DNA of 35,436 nucleotides from a virus. Below the pieces are notes generated by a model that saw nothing but the letters and a program-made list of their open reading frames with translations, had not been told where the DNA came from and made no database searches. This document shows, piece after piece, positions 4,632 to 19,084 of this stretch (its first letter is position 1; every line of letters begins with the position of its first letter). The position numbers were made by a program, and so were the translations under genes. The DNA is taken from the IMG/VR virus record IMGVR_UViG_3300045988_138852. One strand, written 5' to 3'.

Positions 4632-5149
4632 ATGGAGTTGCAGAGAAAATAATAAACGCACTGACCATTGAGGATGTCCTCAGAATGTATGGATACGGAA
4701 CAAGCCCAAAGGGTAGGATTCCGTGTCCTATTCACAAAGGTAAGCACAATAACTTTTGCTATACGGAAAAGGTATATCATTGCTGGAGTTGTGGAGCAAA
4801 AGGGGACTTGATTACGCTCGCCATGGAGTTGAACGGAATTACATTTTCTCAAGCGATTGCGAAGCTAAACTATGATTTTTCGCTCGGGATAGTAAATAAA
4901 AAGCCAAGTATAAGAGAGAGGCAGGAAATTGCGTTAAATAGCAAAATCTCGAAAGTGGCAGAGACTCTAAAATCCGATTTAAGCGATTATTATTCAAAAG
5001 TGACAGACATACATAGAGGACTATTTAAAGTTCGCTGCAGCTCAGATCTTAAAGCTGACGAAGCGAAGCTAATTGACTATTACATATCTAGTTCCGAGCA
5101 ATGGCTAGATGACAATATTGAGGGGGTGATGTATCCATGGGTACCATAG
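4628..5149 (+). CDS. CHC2 (DnaG-type) zinc-finger protein, primase-associated
   Basis: CPIHKGKHNNFCYTEKVYHCWSCGAKGDLITL is the CHC2 primase zinc-finger pattern. ATGA overlap with the upstream gene. Confidence 0.7.
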   Translation: MNGVAEKIINALTIEDVLRMYGYGTSPKGRIPCPIHKGKHNNFCYTEKVYHCWSCGAKGDLITLAMELNGITFSQAIAKLNYDFSLGIVNKKPSIRERQEIALNSKISKVAETLKSDLSDYYSKVTDIHRGLFKVRCSSDLKADEAKLIDYYISSSEQWLDDNIEGVMYPWVP

Positions 5150-6978
5150 ATTTTACAAAAGAGGATTATCTGACATCAGTTGTACCATTTGAATACATCG
5201 AACAGAGCGATAATGCTCTGGAAAAGGAGCAGAGGAAAGCACTTGTTACAGAGCACGCTAAGTCTGTAGGAATTAAAAACTTTACAACGCTTTATAAAGC
5301 TTATTTAAAGATGCTTAAACAGATGGCAAGTAATGACTTGATATGCAACGCAACAAACTTTACAGGTCAGGAATTTGAGCTTGAAGTCGGCACATGGACA
5401 GCTGACGATGGTGGCATTTCAAGAGTAGGATATGGCGGAATGGAAGAAGTTGCATGCCCTCACCCTATCATGCCAGTGCTAAGGCTTGACAATGTAGACA
5501 CTGGGCTTGAAAAGATTAAGCTTGCATATCGTCGAGGTGCAGTTTGGAAAGATATTATTGTTGACCGCAAGCAGATTGCATCAAACAGTTCGATAGTCGG
5601 ACTAGCCGACTATGGAATTGCAGTCACCTCGGAGAACTCTAGAGCGCTTGTTAAGTATTTGCATGACGCAGAGAATCTAAACTTTGATGTAATACCAAGC
5701 AAGAAATCCGTAAGCCGTCTCGGATGGGTTGGAGACGATGGGTTTTCACCTTATGTTGATGGACTAGTGTTTGATGGAGAAGAAGCCTTTAAATCTTTTT
5801 TTAACAGCGTGAAGCAAAAAGGCAACAGTAAAAAATGGATGGACCTAGCGAAAGAAATCCGAAGTGGGGATAATCCAGCGCCTAAAATTTTATTAGTTGC
5901 AGCGTTTGCTTCGGTACTGGTTGAACCGTGCTCATGCCTACCCTTTTTCGTCCATGTTTGCGGTGGAACCGAGACAGGTAAAACTGTTGGATTAATGCTT
6001 GCAGCGTCAGTATGGGCTAACCCTGAGATGGGAAAGTACATCCATACGTTTAATTCAACTGCAGTAGCACAAGAGTTATCAGCTGGCTTTGTCAACTCAT
6101 TGCCCCTAATCCTGGATGAGCTCCAGATTATAAAAGATCGCAAAGATTTTGACCAGCTCATATATCAGTTGTCGGAAGGCGTAGGAAAGGCAAGAGGACA
6201 AAAGACCGGAGGTCTGCAGCGAAATGGAACTTGGGCGAACTGCATTATTACATCCGGAGAGCAGCCAATAACTTCGAATACATCTGGAGGGGGTGCGGTC
6301 AATAGAATCATTGAGATTAGCTGTGAGGATACAAAGCTATTCGATGATCCTGGACGCATAGTAAAGGTTGTTAAATCGAACTATGGACATGCAGGGAAGG
6401 AGTTCGTAAGAATCATTTCAGACGACTCTGTCATGCAAGAAGCAATCAATTTGCAACAGTTGTTTTTCAAGGAATTAAATCAGAAATCTACAGAAAAGCA
6501 AGCACTTGCAGCGAGTTTATTGCTGACGGCTGATGCAATCCTCGGCGAGTATATGTTCTTTGATAATGGTTCTATTGGTGTTGAGGATATGAAGGCATAT
6601 TTGTCAAGCAAGGAAGATGTGTCACAGAATATGCGAGCGTACGAGTGGCTCCAGGGATGGATTGCAGAGAATCATAATAGTTTTATCACTGATAACTATA
6701 CGCCATTGGGTAAAATCTACGGGAGAATCTCGAGTGGCGAAATAAATATTATACGAAATGTATTCAACTCGGCATGCTCAGAAAATGGATTCAATCCGGC
6801 TGAGTTCGCAAAATGGCTCAGCAGGAATAATCTGACTGATACCCTCCAAGGACGAGTCGACAAACAGATTAGAATCAGTGGAATAAGGTTTTGGACAATA
6901 GCTCTTCATGTGAATACTGAAGACAAAACATCTGAAAGCATTGGTTTTGTAGAGGTTCAAGAGGAAATACCGTTTTAA
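5137..6978 (+). CDS. DUF927-like SF3-type replicative helicase / replication initiator
   Basis: Walker A VCGGTETGKTVGLMLAASVW and Walker B LILDELQ. Size and position after the CHC2 protein are typical of phage primase-helicase modules. Confidence 0.65.
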   Translation: MGTIDFTKEDYLTSVVPFEYIEQSDNALEKEQRKALVTEHAKSVGIKNFTTLYKAYLKMLKQMASNDLICNATNFTGQEFELEVGTWTADDGGISRVGYGGMEEVACPHPIMPVLRLDNVDTGLEKIKLAYRRGAVWKDIIVDRKQIASNSSIVGLADYGIAVTSENSRALVKYLHDAENLNFDVIPSKKSVSRLGWVGDDGFSPYVDGLVFDGEEAFKSFFNSVKQKGNSKKWMDLAKEIRSGDNPAPKILLVAAFASVLVEPCSCLPFFVHVCGGTETGKTVGLMLAASVWANPEMGKYIHTFNSTAVAQELSAGFVNSLPLILDELQIIKDRKDFDQLIYQLSEGVGKARGQKTGGLQRNGTWANCIITSGEQPITSNTSGGGAVNRIIEISCEDTKLFDDPGRIVKVVKSNYGHAGKEFVRIISDDSVMQEAINLQQLFFKELNQKSTEKQALAASLLLTADAILGEYMFFDNGSIGVEDMKAYLSSKEDVSQNMRAYEWLQGWIAENHNSFITDNYTPLGKIYGRISSGEINIIRNVFNSACSENGFNPAEFAKWLSRNNLTDTLQGRVDKQIRISGIRFWTIALHVNTEDKTSESIGFVEVQEEIPF

Positions 6979-13834: not shown

Positions 13835-15214
13835 ATGTTTCACAGAATAATAGAGTGGATTAGAAAGGTTTTTAAGGAGCGTGCAGTACAAGGAGAGGTG
13901 CTTAGTACAATTGTCCTAGATGACAAGACAATCGATTACATAGAGTTGTGGTCTGCGATGTATGAAGACAAAGCACCATGGATAAAGGATGATGTGACAA
14001 GCACAGGCATTCCCTCTGCGGTGTCATCGGAACTAGCAAGACTCGTTACGCTTGAGATGGAATCGGAGATTATCGGAAGCAAACGAGCTGATTTTTTAAA
14101 CGCAGCATACCGAAAGGTTTTATCAGAACTAAGGATTCAGACGGAGTATGCGTGTGCGCTTGGAGGAATCATCCTTAAGCCTTATGTACAGGGCGATACA
14201 ATATCCGTTGAATTTATCCAGGCAGATAGATTTGTTCCTACAGGATTTAATAGCTCTGGACAGATAACCTCTTGTCAGTTTGTTGAGCAGGTGGTTCGTA
14301 ACGGAAAGATATACACTAGAGTCGAATCACACGATTTTGATGGAAAGTATTGCGTTATTCAAAACAGAGCTTATGAGAGTAAGCAAAAGGGCGTGCTTGG
14401 TCATCAGATAAATTTGACTGATGTTCCGGAATGGGAGAATCTTGAAGAGCACACGACAATTAAAAATGTGCCGGGCGTATTATTTTCATACTTCAAAATT
14501 CCACAGGCAAATAACAAGAATAGGCAAAGTCCATTCGGAGTGTCTGTCTATTCAAAAGCTGCTGAACTTATTAAGCAGGCTGATGAGCAGTGGGCACGTA
14601 TCATGTGGGAGTTTAAAGGTACGGAACTAGCTGTAGATATGTCCGAGTCACTGTTCAGAAAGGACAGTAACGGAAATACTATTTTGCCCTCTGGCAAAGG
14701 GCGACTATTCCGTCAGTACAGCATAGATACAGGCATATCCGAAAAACCTTTTTATCAAATTTTCAGTCCTGAGATAAGAGACTCAAGTTTATTTAACGGC
14801 TTTAATCAGATATTAAGACGTATTGAGTTTTCATGTGGTCTAGCGTATGGGACATTATCCGATGTTCAAGACGAGGACCGAACGGCTACAGAGGTTTTGT
14901 TTAGCAAGCAGAGATCATATTCTTTCGTATCTCAGATTCAGGAATCGCTGCAGAGTGCACTAGAGGATTTAATTAAGGCGATGGATGTATGGACGAGCCT
15001 ATACAAGCTCGCACCAGCAGGTTCATACGATGTATCATTTAACTTTGATGATAGCTTGATTGTTGACAGCAAGACGGAACATCAGTTGATGATGCAAGAG
15101 GCCACATCTGGGCTGATTCGAAAAGAAATCTATCTGATGAAAAGGTATGGCGTAACAGAGGAGCAGGCAAAAGATATGCTGCCTGAAACTGTGAGAACGC
15201 CTGAGGAAGAGTAA
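13835..15214 (+). CDS. Portal protein (SPP1 gp6-like)
   Basis: 459 aa, immediately after terL, aggagg RBS. Portal-like sequence features and synteny. Confidence 0.8.
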   Translation: MFHRIIEWIRKVFKERAVQGEVLSTIVLDDKTIDYIELWSAMYEDKAPWIKDDVTSTGIPSAVSSELARLVTLEMESEIIGSKRADFLNAAYRKVLSELRIQTEYACALGGIILKPYVQGDTISVEFIQADRFVPTGFNSSGQITSCQFVEQVVRNGKIYTRVESHDFDGKYCVIQNRAYESKQKGVLGHQINLTDVPEWENLEEHTTIKNVPGVLFSYFKIPQANNKNRQSPFGVSVYSKAAELIKQADEQWARIMWEFKGTELAVDMSESLFRKDSNGNTILPSGKGRLFRQYSIDTGISEKPFYQIFSPEIRDSSLFNGFNQILRRIEFSCGLAYGTLSDVQDEDRTATEVLFSKQRSYSFVSQIQESLQSALEDLIKAMDVWTSLYKLAPAGSYDVSFNFDDSLIVDSKTEHQLMMQEATSGLIRKEIYLMKRYGVTEEQAKDMLPETVRTPEEE

Positions 15215-16905
15215 TGCTTAGCCCTGAATACTTAGCGCAGTGCACATCTTATCTTCTAGGTATGATGGACTTGATTAACGAACAGCTTGTTGCAGACATT
15301 GCGAGACGAATTGTTAAGACAGGTACATTAACCGAAAGTGCACAGTTTGAGGCGGAGAAACTAACGCAGCAAAACATACTATATAAAGATATTGTTAATA
15401 GCATATCTAAGGTATCGGGCTTGACGGAAGCTGAAATTACTAGAGTCTTCGAAGAGGCCAATTTTGAGAACATGGAAAGCGAGAACCTCAGAGCTGCAAT
15501 AGCAGGAAAGACACCTATAGATCATGCGTCAAATGTTGCAATGGGCAACTTGATATCATCTCATATAAGAAAGACTAAAGGCGTGGTTAAGAATCTTACA
15601 AGGACCACTGCTAGTCAAGGACAAAACGCCTTTATTAACGCTGTTAATCTTGCTAATATGCAGGTAAGTTCGGGTGCTTTTACTTATGATTTTGCTATTA
15701 AAAATGCTATCAAGCAGGTCGCAAAATCAGGACTTACCGTACAGTATCCTACAGGTCACATCGACAAGCTAGATGTTGCAGTTCGCAGAGCTGTGCTCAC
15801 CGGAGTAAATCAATCTTCTGCCGAACTTAACATGTTATATTGCGACGAAATAGGCACGGATTTGGTAGAGGTTACCGCACATTCTGGAGCGAGACCGTCA
15901 CACGCCGATTGGCAAGGCGGGGTATACAGTCTTAGTGGTAAAAGCAAGGGATATGGCTCTTTTTATGATATTACGGGCTACGGTACGGGTGAAGGACTTT
16001 GTGGATGGAACTGCAGACACAGTTTTTACGCTTACTACGAAGGGACTGAGAGAACTTACTCGAAGGAATACCTAGATAGTTTGGATAGCAAAACCTATGA
16101 ATATGGTGGAGAGACATACACTAATTACGAAGCAGGACAGAAGCAGAGATCATATGAAAGAGCAATTCGAGCAGAAAAGAGATACTTGGCTGGTTTGAAT
16201 TCTGCTTACAACGAGACAAAAGATGATACCTTAAGGCAGAGCATAAAATACGAGATGGAGAGCACTGCGGTCAATTTAAAGCGTAAGGAAGCGGAGCTGA
16301 AACATTTCTGCAAGGCCACAGATAGGCGCGTCGATACGACTAGAACTCAAGTTCATGCCGTAAAAGATGCGTCCGGTAAGATTGTAGGATTTGATAGAAG
16401 TGCTGCACAAAGGGCAAGGAATGTAGCAATTAAGCACCATATAGATTGGTTAAAGTCAATCGGAGCTGAAAGCAGCGAATTAAAAGTGCTTGACAAATAC
16501 TATGATGCCAAATATAATAATTCTCCTGCCTATAAGAATCTAATGGATTATAGATTTTTGGTAAGCAAAGGAGAGATAAGCCCACTGCTGAGTTATAAAG
16601 TATATGATGCGTATAGTAGAGCCGTGCAAAATAATTTAGTGGGAGTACAAACACCGTTAGGTTTACAGATAGAAGGATATGCGTCTCATTTTGTTGGAAG
16701 AGTGATTGGGAATTCGGCATTAAACCAGAAATATAATAGACCTGGTGTTTCAATTGAGGCTTTGATTGATTGCTTGAAATCGGGAAGAGTTGGAAAAGAA
16801 CAAGTAAGCAAATTAGGAGAGCGCAGCATTCTTTTGAAAAGTGATAAATGCAACATAGCAATTAATCCGGATAAAAGAATACTGATACAGTGTAACTCTA
16901 AATAA
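15214..16905 (+). CDS. MuF/SPP1 gp7-like minor head (morphogenesis) protein with an approximately 180-aa C-terminal extension (toxin-like)
   Basis: VTAHSGARPSHADWQGGVY and GWNCRHSF are MuF-family motifs (residues about 1-380). Residues 381-563 are extra and AT-rich. Confidence 0.8.
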   Translation: MLSPEYLAQCTSYLLGMMDLINEQLVADIARRIVKTGTLTESAQFEAEKLTQQNILYKDIVNSISKVSGLTEAEITRVFEEANFENMESENLRAAIAGKTPIDHASNVAMGNLISSHIRKTKGVVKNLTRTTASQGQNAFINAVNLANMQVSSGAFTYDFAIKNAIKQVAKSGLTVQYPTGHIDKLDVAVRRAVLTGVNQSSAELNMLYCDEIGTDLVEVTAHSGARPSHADWQGGVYSLSGKSKGYGSFYDITGYGTGEGLCGWNCRHSFYAYYEGTERTYSKEYLDSLDSKTYEYGGETYTNYEAGQKQRSYERAIRAEKRYLAGLNSAYNETKDDTLRQSIKYEMESTAVNLKRKEAELKHFCKATDRRVDTTRTQVHAVKDASGKIVGFDRSAAQRARNVAIKHHIDWLKSIGAESSELKVLDKYYDAKYNNSPAYKNLMDYRFLVSKGEISPLLSYKVYDAYSRAVQNNLVGVQTPLGLQIEGYASHFVGRVIGNSALNQKYNRPGVSIEALIDCLKSGRVGKEQVSKLGERSILLKSDKCNIAINPDKRILIQCNSK

Positions 16906-16924
16906 TTTGGGGAGGTGGAAATAT

Positions 16925-17137
16925 ATGGAAAGTATTTTGATTTATAAACCTGATGACTTCAGGTACTTGAAGAAATATTATAGTGAAGAATATCTAAAAA
17001 ATGCATCGAAATCGGACTTCTTGGATGCTATGAATGAGAAAATCATGGAAGTAGGTTTTGATGATAAATTGGAATTTTATAATGACGAGGGTAAAAAGCT
17101 CCAGGAAATATATGACAATATTTACTATATGAATTAG
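16925..17137 (+). CDS. Small acidic protein (70 aa); candidate immunity protein for the MuF C-terminal domain
   Basis: ATG 16925 lies 5 nt after ggggaggtgg. About 30-33% GC. Followed by two terminators. Confidence 0.55.
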   Translation: MESILIYKPDDFRYLKKYYSEEYLKNASKSDFLDAMNEKIMEVGFDDKLEFYNDEGKKLQEIYDNIYYMN

Positions 17138-17174
17138 TATCCTAAAACCATAGGCGAGTTTATCCCAATGATAT

Positions 17175-17203
17175 AAACACACTCAGGCAGGGTGTGTTTT
17201 TTA
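17175..17203 (+). terminator. Intrinsic terminator 1 after the MuF/immunity pair
   Basis: aaacacac / gtgtgttt stem, 9-nt loop, tttttt tail. Confidence 0.5.
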
Positions 17204-17223: not shown

Positions 17224-17248
17224 AAGGCAGCTATATAGCTGTCTTTTG
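17224..17248 (+). terminator. Intrinsic terminator 2 (tandem)
   Basis: aaggcagcta / tagctgtctt palindromic stem followed by tttt. Confidence 0.5.
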
Positions 17249-17340
17249 TTATACAAAAAATTAGCTTAGTACAGAGCGTAATCATGTACACGGAGGAGAA
17301 GCAACCTCGTATAAAAGCGTACCGAGAAAGGAAAAACATC

Positions 17341-17901
17341 ATGAAAAGAGAAGTTATTGAAAATCTCCTTAAGGGACTAGGAGTGGCCGAGGATAAGGTC
17401 AAGGAGGCTGTAGATACTATCATGACCGAAAATGGTAATGACATCGAAAGATATAAAACCTCAGAGACCAACCTTAAATCGCTGCTTAAAACTGCGAACG
17501 AGACACTTGAGAAGTTTAAGGATGTCGACATCGATGGACTTAAAGGTGAAGTGCAAAAGTACAAGGATGCAGCTGCCGAGGCAGAGTCAAATAGCAAAGC
17601 CGAAATCGAAAGGCTGCAATTCGGATATGCTCTTGATGGGGCGCTGAGAACTGCAGGTGCAAAGAACAGTAAAGCAGTAAGAGCGCTACTTGATGAGGCA
17701 GGGCTTAAGCTTAACGGCGACAGCATCGTCGGTCTTGATGAGCAGCTAAAAACCATCAGAGAGAATAACGATTATCTCTTTAATGATGACACAAAGCCAG
17801 TTATCGTTAGATCCACTCCAGGAGCAACTGGTGGAACAGGGTCTGATGATAAGAACAAAGAAGTTAACACAGCAATAAGAAATCTTTTAGGAAAGGAATA
17901 A
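17341..17901 (+). CDS. Scaffolding protein (GP20-like)
   Basis: MKREVIENLLKGLGVAEDKVKEAVDTIMTENGNDIERYK, a helical, charged protein directly upstream of the capsid gene. Confidence 0.7.
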   Translation: MKREVIENLLKGLGVAEDKVKEAVDTIMTENGNDIERYKTSETNLKSLLKTANETLEKFKDVDIDGLKGEVQKYKDAAAEAESNSKAEIERLQFGYALDGALRTAGAKNSKAVRALLDEAGLKLNGDSIVGLDEQLKTIRENNDYLFNDDTKPVIVRSTPGATGGTGSDDKNKEVNTAIRNLLGKE

Positions 17902-17905
17902 TATT

Positions 17906-19084
17906 ATGCTAAACGTAGTAACAAGAGAAAAAGTTGAAGCTCTAATCAGGGAGCAGGTGACTCCAGCAATTTTTCAGGACACACCAAAGGAATCAGTTGT
18001 TTTGAGTCTTGGTAAGAAGCTGCCAAACATGAGCTCAAAGACAACAAGAATCAGAGTAACCGACATTCTACCAATGGCTTACTGGGTAGATGGCGACACA
18101 GGAATGAAGCAGACTAGTGATATGGCATGGGATAATGTGTATCTCACAGCAGGGGAACTCGCAGTTATCGTTCCAATTCCTGAGGCAGTGCTAGATGATG
18201 CAGAATTTGATATCATAGGCGAGATTAAGCCTAGGGTAATTGAGGCAATCGGACAGAAGGTTGATAGCGCAATCCTGTTCGGTGTTAACAGACCAAGAGA
18301 GTGGCAGAACGACGTGATTACAATGGCGAGACAGTCAGGCAACAACGTCGCTCCTGGTTCAAAAGACATGTTCACACTTATCATGGATGAAGGTGGCGTG
18401 CTAAACAAGATCGAGGAGGACGGATATGTTCACTCTGGAGCTATCGCATCAACAGGAATGAAGGCAAAGCTCAGAGGGCTTAAGGGTACAGACGGACATC
18501 CAATCTTCATGTCAACATTGCAGGGGGCAACATCATACGGCCTTGACGGAGCACCTTTGTACTTCCCTGACAATGGAAGCTTTGACAAGAAGATTGCGCA
18601 GCTGATTGTTGGTGATTTCAACAAGCTTGTGTACTCAATCCGTCAGGATGTAACATTTAAGCTACTAACAGAAGGCGTAATCCAGGACCCACAGACAAAG
18701 GAGATTGTATATAACCTCGCGCAGCAGGATATGATTGCCCTAAGAGTTGTATTCAGAATGGGTTGGGCAATGCCAAATCCAGCTACAAGAATGAACGAGG
18801 ACAGAACAGGTTGTCCATTTGCTTATCTTGAGCCAGCTACACCTGTGACAACTCAGAAAGTTACATTCACTGTAAAGAACAAGACTGTCGCAATCGAAGG
18901 CGCAACTGTTGAGGTTAACGGTTCAAGACTAAAGACTAATGCTGCCGGTGTTGCAGAGTTTAATCTAAGAGCTGGAACATATCCAGTAAAGATTAAGGCA
19001 TCTGGATATGCACCTCAGACAGACACAGTGACTGTTGAGTCTGCAGAGGTAACAAAGGCAGTGGTTCTTGTAGCTACTAAGTAG
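17906..19084 (+). CDS. Major capsid protein (HK97 fold) with a C-terminal carboxypeptidase-regulatory-like/Ig-like domain
   Basis: Position after the scaffold gene, with a capsid-like core. The last ~85 aa (VTFTVKNKTVAIEGATVEVNGSRLKTNAAGVAEFNLRAGTYPVKIKASGYAPQTDTVTV) resemble a CarboxypepD_reg beta-sandwich. Confidence 0.8.
   Translation: MLNVVTREKVEALIREQVTPAIFQDTPKESVVLSLGKKLPNMSSKTTRIRVTDILPMAYWVDGDTGMKQTSDMAWDNVYLTAGELAVIVPIPEAVLDDAEFDIIGEIKPRVIEAIGQKVDSAILFGVNRPREWQNDVITMARQSGNNVAPGSKDMFTLIMDEGGVLNKIEEDGYVHSGAIASTGMKAKLRGLKGTDGHPIFMSTLQGATSYGLDGAPLYFPDNGSFDKKIAQLIVGDFNKLVYSIRQDVTFKLLTEGVIQDPQTKEIVYNLAQQDMIALRVVFRMGWAMPNPATRMNEDRTGCPFAYLEPATPVTTQKVTFTVKNKTVAIEGATVEVNGSRLKTNAAGVAEFNLRAGTYPVKIKASGYAPQTDTVTVESAEVTKAVVLVATK

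Follow-up and report, generated by a model that had tools for sequence, protein, structure and literature searches.

A C-terminal tip and its downstream gene exchanged as one cassette on the MuF2 minor capsid protein of a temperate Clostridia phage: a predicted polymorphic toxin and immunity pair

The virus record IMGVR_UViG_3300045988_138852 is a stretch of DNA of 35,436 nucleotides (nt), referred to below as the window, in which a minor capsid gene, muF, with an unusual 3' end is followed directly by a small acidic open reading frame (ORF). The muF gene (15214..16905; like all window features given here, on the + strand) appears in the ORF list as a 563-residue protein and matches PHROG 581, 'minor head protein', in a scan of PHROGs (E 2.6e-94). 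Residues 2-367 (15217..16314) are a minor-capsid (MuF) carrier. They align with positions 1-366 of the Phage_min_cap2 profile (PF06152, E 2e-89), which corresponds to the 'MuF2' class of Jamet et al. 2017 (PMC5576092), and they contain the head-morphogenesis motifs that a preliminary description of the DNA had read there, AHSGARPSHADWQGGVY at residues 222-238 and GWNCRHSF at residues 264-271. This domain is predicted to be the capsid- or portal-associated part of the protein. A conserved linker, residues 368-401 (16315..16416), shows 87-98% DNA identity to loci carrying other C-termini and belongs to the backbone. The C-terminal part that follows is termed the tip. The start of muF coincides with the stop codon of the portal gene (13835..15214; PF05133, SPP1_portal, E 2.7e-8), and orthologous portals lie upstream in 44 related loci. 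The scaffold gene (17284..17901; PF06810, E 6.7e-34) marks the 3' backbone flank, giving the order portal, muF, scaffold, major capsid (PF05065). The window also encodes a tyrosine integrase, a CI-like repressor with helix-turn-helix and S24 domains, and a GH25 endolysin with CWB2 repeats, which together identify a temperate Clostridia phage. Three hallmarks of a MuF polymorphic toxin are therefore present: an N-terminal domain of the MuF superfamily, a gene directly after the portal gene, and a temperate Firmicutes phage.

The tip and the 70-residue gene that follows it are one cassette, exchanged by recombination among related phages and prophage remnants. This exchange was examined in about 70 related loci, cited below by L numbers where needed. 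Against phages with tip types B or B', DNA identity falls from 90-98% to about 35% at position 16417 and returns to 97-100% at 17167. The portal, MuF domain and scaffold genes of the phages with swapped cassettes are 90-100% identical in DNA to those of the window. The exchangeable cassette (16417..17166; 750 bp), delimited by this drop in identity and by its guanine-cytosine (GC) content, comprises tip residues 402-563, the downstream gene and 29 nt of 3' flank. Its GC content is 0.340, as compared to 0.428 and 0.437 in the flanks, placing it in the lowest 1.9% of 750-bp intervals; all cassette types have a GC content of 0.32-0.35 versus 0.40-0.43 for the backbone. The preliminary description had followed a decrease in GC content by hand and had suggested a separately acquired 3' module. 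Its counts are exact (0.517, 0.267 and 0.317), and the sharp breakpoints on a near-identical backbone, together with the low GC content of the cassette, show that the suggestion was correct. The extra C-terminal module that it placed from residue 381 is likewise real and belongs to no Pfam, PHROG or NCBIfam family, but its boundary lies further downstream. Alignment with MuF homologues, proposed there as the way to locate the breakpoint, shows that the exchangeable part begins at residue 402 against type B; against types C, D and E it begins after KYNNS at residue 437, and thus at residue 438. The latter point is the end of a junction motif, LDKYYDAKYNNS (residues 426-437; 16489..16524), which is common to tip types A, C, D and E and directly after which these types diverge. 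In the wider family, the junction has the consensus KTLxxxxxxKYN. This pattern suggests that the LDKYYDAKYNNS junction is likely the recombination joint.

There are at least six tip types; these, termed A (that of the window), B, B', C, D and E, are found either on the window's backbone or on an orthologue that has a 72-74% identical protein and an orthologous portal gene upstream. Across all six types, the carrier backbones are 72-98% identical in protein, such that unrelated tips are mounted on a conserved carrier. A C-terminus shared in full by close homologues as a structural region had been named in advance as a finding that would contradict a toxin module; what is observed is unrelated tips on near-identical backbones. 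In an architecture table of about 60 loci, each tip type precedes its own small ORF, with zero exceptions. Tip A is carried by most close relatives (about 45 loci), and within this type the identities of tip and ORF fall jointly, to 84% and 70% and then to 64% and 59%, while the MuF domain stays at 97-99%. The type E tip, which occupies the same position in the orthologous protein, is Ntox50 (PF15542, E 1.2e-29), a predicted toxin of the BECR RNase class that Zhang et al. 2012 (PMC3482391) had already listed alongside MuF carriers. The Ntox50 domain is common to antibacterial toxins of type VI secretion systems (T6SS), type VII secretion systems (T7SS) and the MafB class (PMC3482391). Tip types B, B', C and D and their partner ORFs have zero Pfam matches (L037-L039, L064, L065, L067; L060; L010, L058, L063). 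In types C and D, the tip has a motif, S-(S/D)-H-x-x-x-(F/R), that resembles the one in tip A. When the tip A profile was compared with these tips by hhalign, the His motifs aligned at a probability of only 1-2%, which is not significant. In many relatives, one or two extra genes of about 110 residues, of the YjcQ family (PF09639, E 6.7e-19), stand directly after the small ORF (L014-L016, L019, L020, L023-L030, L032, L033, L044, L045, L048, L049, L055); the window itself has no YjcQ gene between its small ORF and the scaffold gene.

The small ORF of the window (16925..17137) encodes a 70-residue protein and starts 19 nt after the muF stop codon. Its ribosome-binding site, GGGGAGGTGG (16909..16918), was read in the sequence 6 nt upstream of the ATG. 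The protein has an isoelectric point (pI) of 4.5, opposite to that of the basic tip (pI 9.5), in agreement with the acidic ORF and strong ribosome-binding site described earlier. In all 14 of the diverse loci sampled, the tip domain is followed immediately by a homologue of 66-95 residues; the carriers in these loci are MuF1, MuF2, a MuF1 with a putative intein, an LPD3 protein and two long proteins without a family. Failure of this ORF to be conserved beside the domain had been set down as a second outcome that would speak against a pair; the reverse is found. The partner family has 49 members, with an invariant YD inside a C-terminal YDxIY motif. An AlphaFold2 (AF2) model of the 70-residue protein consists of four helices and has a predicted local distance difference test score (pLDDT) of 91.5. 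Searches of Pfam, PHROGs and NCBIfam with this protein gave zero matches, including no DNA-binding family in Pfam or NCBIfam, and a Foldseek search of the model against the PDB found zero structural relatives. On the strength of the co-conserved homologues, it is predicted to be the cognate immunity protein of the tip, and its gene is called the immunity gene below.

The tip A family is large. A profile search of 1.84 billion cluster representatives returned 473 proteins at E<=1e-3 and 195 at E<=1e-10, and the domain is C-terminal in every family protein found. Among 107 tip A representatives, the carriers include 45 with PF06152 (MuF2), 16 with PF04233 (MuF1), three with VG15 and one with the polyvalent LPD3 domain. 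Short homologues of 105-216 residues were considered as stand-alone proteins and rejected, being gene calls in truncated remnants, in frameshifted copies or at contig ends. Only one of 50,697 deposited phage records contains tip A, as searched by tblastn with three family members. This record is an unannotated gut contig, and hence no cultured phage can serve as a model. The sole genome with the tip in the species collection is an uncultured Clostridia metagenome-assembled genome. The tip A and partner families are nearly confined to uncultured phages. Frameshifts split the tip A ORF in L011, L054, L059 and L066, owing either to assembly errors or to remnant toxins becoming pseudogenes with the small ORF left intact. 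In L078 (1021-3342), a 773-residue MuF1 protein with the same tip has a weak match to the intein-splicing family PF14890 inside its MuF region (E 1.7e-5, below Pfam's cut-off).

The architecture of the tip was examined with an AF2 model of 119 residues built from a 25-sequence alignment (pLDDT 95.2; predicted template-modelling score, pTM, 0.86). The model contains a helical N-terminal sub-domain, residues 423-475 (16480..16638), represented by helices at model positions 2-8 and 16-31, which is conserved together with the core across the tip A family. It is followed by a predicted catalytic core, residues 476-563 (16639..16902), defined by the model and by invariant columns, with a pI of 9.6 over its 88 residues. 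The order of elements in the core is a helix bearing His492 and Arg496, a loop bearing Arg509, a second helix, and a four-stranded meander sheet; in model numbering, the helices span 47-54 and 70-79 and the four strands fall within 81-118. Gln559 sits in the last strand. His492, Arg496, Arg509 and Gln559 are the most conserved positions of the family, the two helix residues being invariant or nearly so and Gln559 invariant. These residues suggest an enzyme. The preliminary description had likened the last part of the protein to DUF4258/RelE-like RNases on the basis of H-x-x-x-R and R-x-G-V motifs. The motifs are present and contain the most conserved positions of the family, but the likeness is statistically unsupported and is retained only at the level of topology: the model has the BECR topology as the literature defines that fold.

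Remnants of this locus are found outside phages that retain capsid genes. Several metagenomic contigs hold only the last ~230 codons of muF and have no portal gene. In one form, the remnant is a single cassette of tip A with its own ORF (L006, L043, L050, L051). In the other form, tip C and its immC are followed by a 40% fragment of tip A with immA, by immB, by a 37% fragment of tip B' with immB', and by a truncated scaffold gene. Such arrays (L052, L053, L056, L058, L061, L063, L066, L068, L070) keep up to four full-length small ORF types beside tips cut to 37-40% of their length. Orphan immunity genes classically appear in this way, as intact small ORFs beside truncated toxins, and the remnant arrays bear that signature. 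Loci L006 and L053 both adjoin an adenine deaminase gene, indicating one chromosomal site with variable cassette content. In L047, an IS200-type transposase gene (4716-5264; PF01797) is inserted beside a remnant array, with a CI-like repressor gene upstream; the locus as a whole reads as a decaying prophage.

Signals for separate expression of the immunity gene were also found. A perfect sigma-70 consensus, TTGACA-17-TATAAT (16490..16518; 12/12 match), lies inside muF, on the LDKYYDAKYNNS junction peptide, and is the only 12/12 site in the 35-kb window, with 0.02 expected by chance. Nine of 12 diverse tip-A loci have a site matching at 10/12 or better, seven at the same position and two nearby, and the perfect form also occurs in L001, L057 and L078 despite protein identities of 32-68%. 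The remaining three loci (L071, L073, L079) have no such site. Conservation of the site was not accepted as proof of a promoter and is not independent evidence, because the hexamers coincide with a conserved peptide and three of the 12 loci lack it. The two terminators reported earlier after the small ORF are both present. Terminator 1 (17175..17203) has a 10-bp stem and a U run (-12 kcal/mol, z -3.6), lies in conserved backbone just 3' of the cassette and is conserved in L037; terminator 2 (17224..17250) is a hairpin with a U run found by terminator scan (-13.3 kcal/mol, z -4.6). Both are part of the backbone and not of the cassette. Their position midway through the late structural operon, after the immunity gene and before the scaffold gene, implies that the late genes depend on read-through or re-initiation. 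The site at 16490-16518 is a candidate internal promoter driving the immunity gene. Together with the two terminators, it suggests that this gene is transcribed in the lysogen as a moron-like unit.

Taken together, these data make it probable that the 563-residue protein is a polymorphic toxin of the MuF2 type, encoded by a temperate phage of gut Clostridia, with the 70-residue protein as its immunity partner. This reading was offered in the preliminary description for a pair of no named family, and it is supported because tip and ORF swap as a unit, because they pair strictly type for type, because an alternative tip is Ntox50, because the two travel together in 14 of 14 loci, and because intact small ORFs persist in the remnants. 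The tip A toxin/immunity family has no name; its kind, the MuF polymorphic toxin, is already known. Known examples (PMC3482391; PMC5576092), such as the MuF2 nuclease toxin of Streptococcus pyogenes SF370.1, share with the window the N-terminal MuF2 domain, the position directly after the portal gene in a temperate Firmicutes siphophage, and the variable C-terminal extension with a small ORF directly downstream. They differ in that the window's tip and partner match no curated toxin or immunity family, and the protein falls in the class 'C-terminal extension, unknown domain' of the Jamet scheme (PMC5576092). The Apk2 toxins of Streptococcus pneumoniae, Mannheimia and Pasteurella prophages are experimentally validated MuF toxin/immunity pairs with the same arrangement of MuF carrier, C-terminal toxin and cognate immunity (PMC12226406). 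However, Apk2 tips are RelA/SpoT-like (p)ppApp synthetases (PMC12226406), whereas the window's tip is an unrelated small alpha+beta domain. The remnant arrays resemble the orphan arrays of CdiA, Rhs and MafB, in which a main gene is followed by a stack of 3' toxin fragments, each starting at a conserved junction motif and accompanied by an intact immunity gene. Here, in contrast, the arrays lie in a decayed prophage with truncated muF and scaffold genes, beside an adenine deaminase gene, and not downstream of an intact secretion-system toxin.

A mechanism can be proposed from these features. A few copies of the 563-residue protein would be packaged in the capsid through the MuF domain and would enter the target cell along with the DNA. 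The tip would act there as an enzyme toxin, its basic 88-residue core being most likely a metal-independent RNase of BECR-like architecture. The acidic four-helix partner would bind and block the tip, thereby sparing the producing cell during virion assembly and shielding lysogens, or carriers of remnants, from incoming toxin. With its internal promoter and two terminators, the immunity gene may form a separate transcription unit that is expressed in the lysogen. We infer capsid delivery, toxicity, neutralisation and the RNase activity of the tip from the locus and the models.

Several results weigh against this reading. The tip has zero family matches in Pfam, PHROGs and NCBIfam. Against DUF4258 and toxin families, the window's tip gave zero matches at E<=5, and none of the 107 members matched at E<=0.01. 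In the Foldseek search of the tip against the PDB, the best E-value was 0.11 and none was significant. The last-strand residue is Gln, as compared to the Ser/Thr or His typical of BECR RNases. No secretion-system carrier domain (LXG, Rhs or CdiA) was found among the 107 tip A representatives scanned, and carriers found only in phages fit a phage-specific effector as well as they fit a competition toxin. Finally, the promoter hexamers overlap codons of the conserved L-D...K-Y-N peptide.

The nature of the predicted enzyme is therefore less firm than the identification of the pair. A profile search of PDB sequences with the tip gave chance-level matches only, and one of 25 family members matches DUF4258, weakly (E 0.1). 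BECR structures nevertheless head the Foldseek PDB list, although weakly: CdiA-CT (E 0.11-0.23), RelE (0.58) and HigB (0.8-1.0), with template-modelling (TM) scores of 0.3-0.4, and also colicin E5. In BFVD, a phage DUF4258 model was matched at E 0.02 with a TM score of 0.40, and the two significant matches are unannotated phage proteins. The tip resembles BECR toxins (Ntox49/DUF4258 PF14076, Ntox50, PBECR1-5, colicin D/E5, RelE) in its core of about 90 residues, its basic charge, its helix with conserved His and Arg/Lys followed by a four-stranded meander sheet, and its association with MuF and polyvalent phage proteins. It differs from them in the extra two-helix sub-domain before the core and in the Gln that replaces Ser/Thr/His in the last strand. 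Since no sequence match and no annotated fold match is significant, a BECR-like RNase is put forward tentatively, as the likeliest single activity but with somewhat less than even confidence.

The explanation that competes best with a MuF toxin has the same biochemistry and differs only in biological role. Injected into the host, the tip could serve as an effector that promotes takeover or counters defences, for example as an RNase acting on host or defence RNAs, a role already suggested for PBECR domains in MuF and polyvalent proteins. It would not be a weapon against competitors; the small protein would then be an inhibitor for the producer cell, and the chromosomal arrays of small ORFs a host defence against phage effectors. 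Such a role was proposed for MuF-fused RNase domains by Iyer et al. 2017 (PMC5512222), and it accords with the restriction of tip A to MuF1, MuF2, VG15 and LPD3 carriers among the 107 representatives and with the fixed chromosomal site at which the remnant arrays keep their small ORFs intact. However, the sister cassette carries Ntox50, which also occurs in T6SS, T7SS and MafB antibacterial toxins (PMC3482391), and strain-level polymorphism with matched immunity is the pattern of a competition system. An effector role is considered the less likely of the two, yet it is the most serious competitor.

A second alternative treats tip and small ORF as a moron that acts in the lysogen as an addiction or abortive-infection module like toxin-antitoxin (TA) systems, expressed from the internal promoter and independent of capsid delivery. 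The sigma-70 consensus and the two terminators would suit such a module, as would the remnants that retain, without capsid genes, an intact truncated tip ORF of 216-238 residues together with the small ORF. A 216-residue sequence from the internal Met of the linker (P0001) has 211 member sequences. Against this, all full-length family members examined have the toxin as the C-terminal part of a capsid or polyvalent carrier, and none has it as a free RelBE-like type II TA toxin. In addition, the in-frame starts downstream of the promoter have no good ribosome-binding site, and the arrays show truncated toxins but intact small ORFs. The order of toxin then inhibitor, with an inhibitor that has no DNA-binding domain, is also atypical of type II TA systems. 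We consider this alternative improbable. Least credible of all, and very improbable, is a non-toxic domain with a role in structure or assembly (DNA or portal binding, for example), the small ORF then encoding its assembly chaperone: tip A is indeed present in most close relatives and matches no toxin family, and MuF proteins such as SPP1 gp7 are structural (PMC5576092), but phages with 95-98% identical backbones swap in unrelated tips including Ntox50, the pair moves between unrelated carriers, remnants without any capsid gene retain the small ORFs, and the invariance of His, Arg, Arg and Gln points to an enzyme.

The human gut is believed to harbour MuF toxins in abundance; for about two thirds of their C-terminal extensions no domain has been assigned, and experimental tests are scarce. 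At this locus, one of these unassigned domains and the protein that accompanies it are defined as a large family (473 tip and 49 partner representatives), for which confident models and clear invariant residues are on hand for mutagenesis. Six exchangeable cassettes on one phage backbone, with chromosomal orphan arrays, form a ready experimental system. It could be used to address whether the role of toxins delivered by capsids lies in competition, in lysogeny decisions or in countering host defence, and how the lysogen expresses immunity. A bolder combination would have the tip as a new phage-restricted, non-BECR fold of capsid-delivered toxin with its immunity, the decayed prophage as an 'immunity island', and, for each immunity gene, a promoter within the conserved LDKYYxxKYNNS junction. 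That all of these hold jointly is doubtful, with roughly four chances in five against it. If they did, the island in gut Clostridia would stack orphan immunity genes against several MuF toxin types and supply spare tips, and the junction would serve simultaneously as coding sequence, recombination joint and promoter.

One further feature lies downstream of the scaffold gene. The major capsid protein (17906-19084) carries, at residues 322-385, a C-terminal beta-sandwich extension of the CarboxypepD_reg/PEGA-like type, which is possibly a surface decoration domain.

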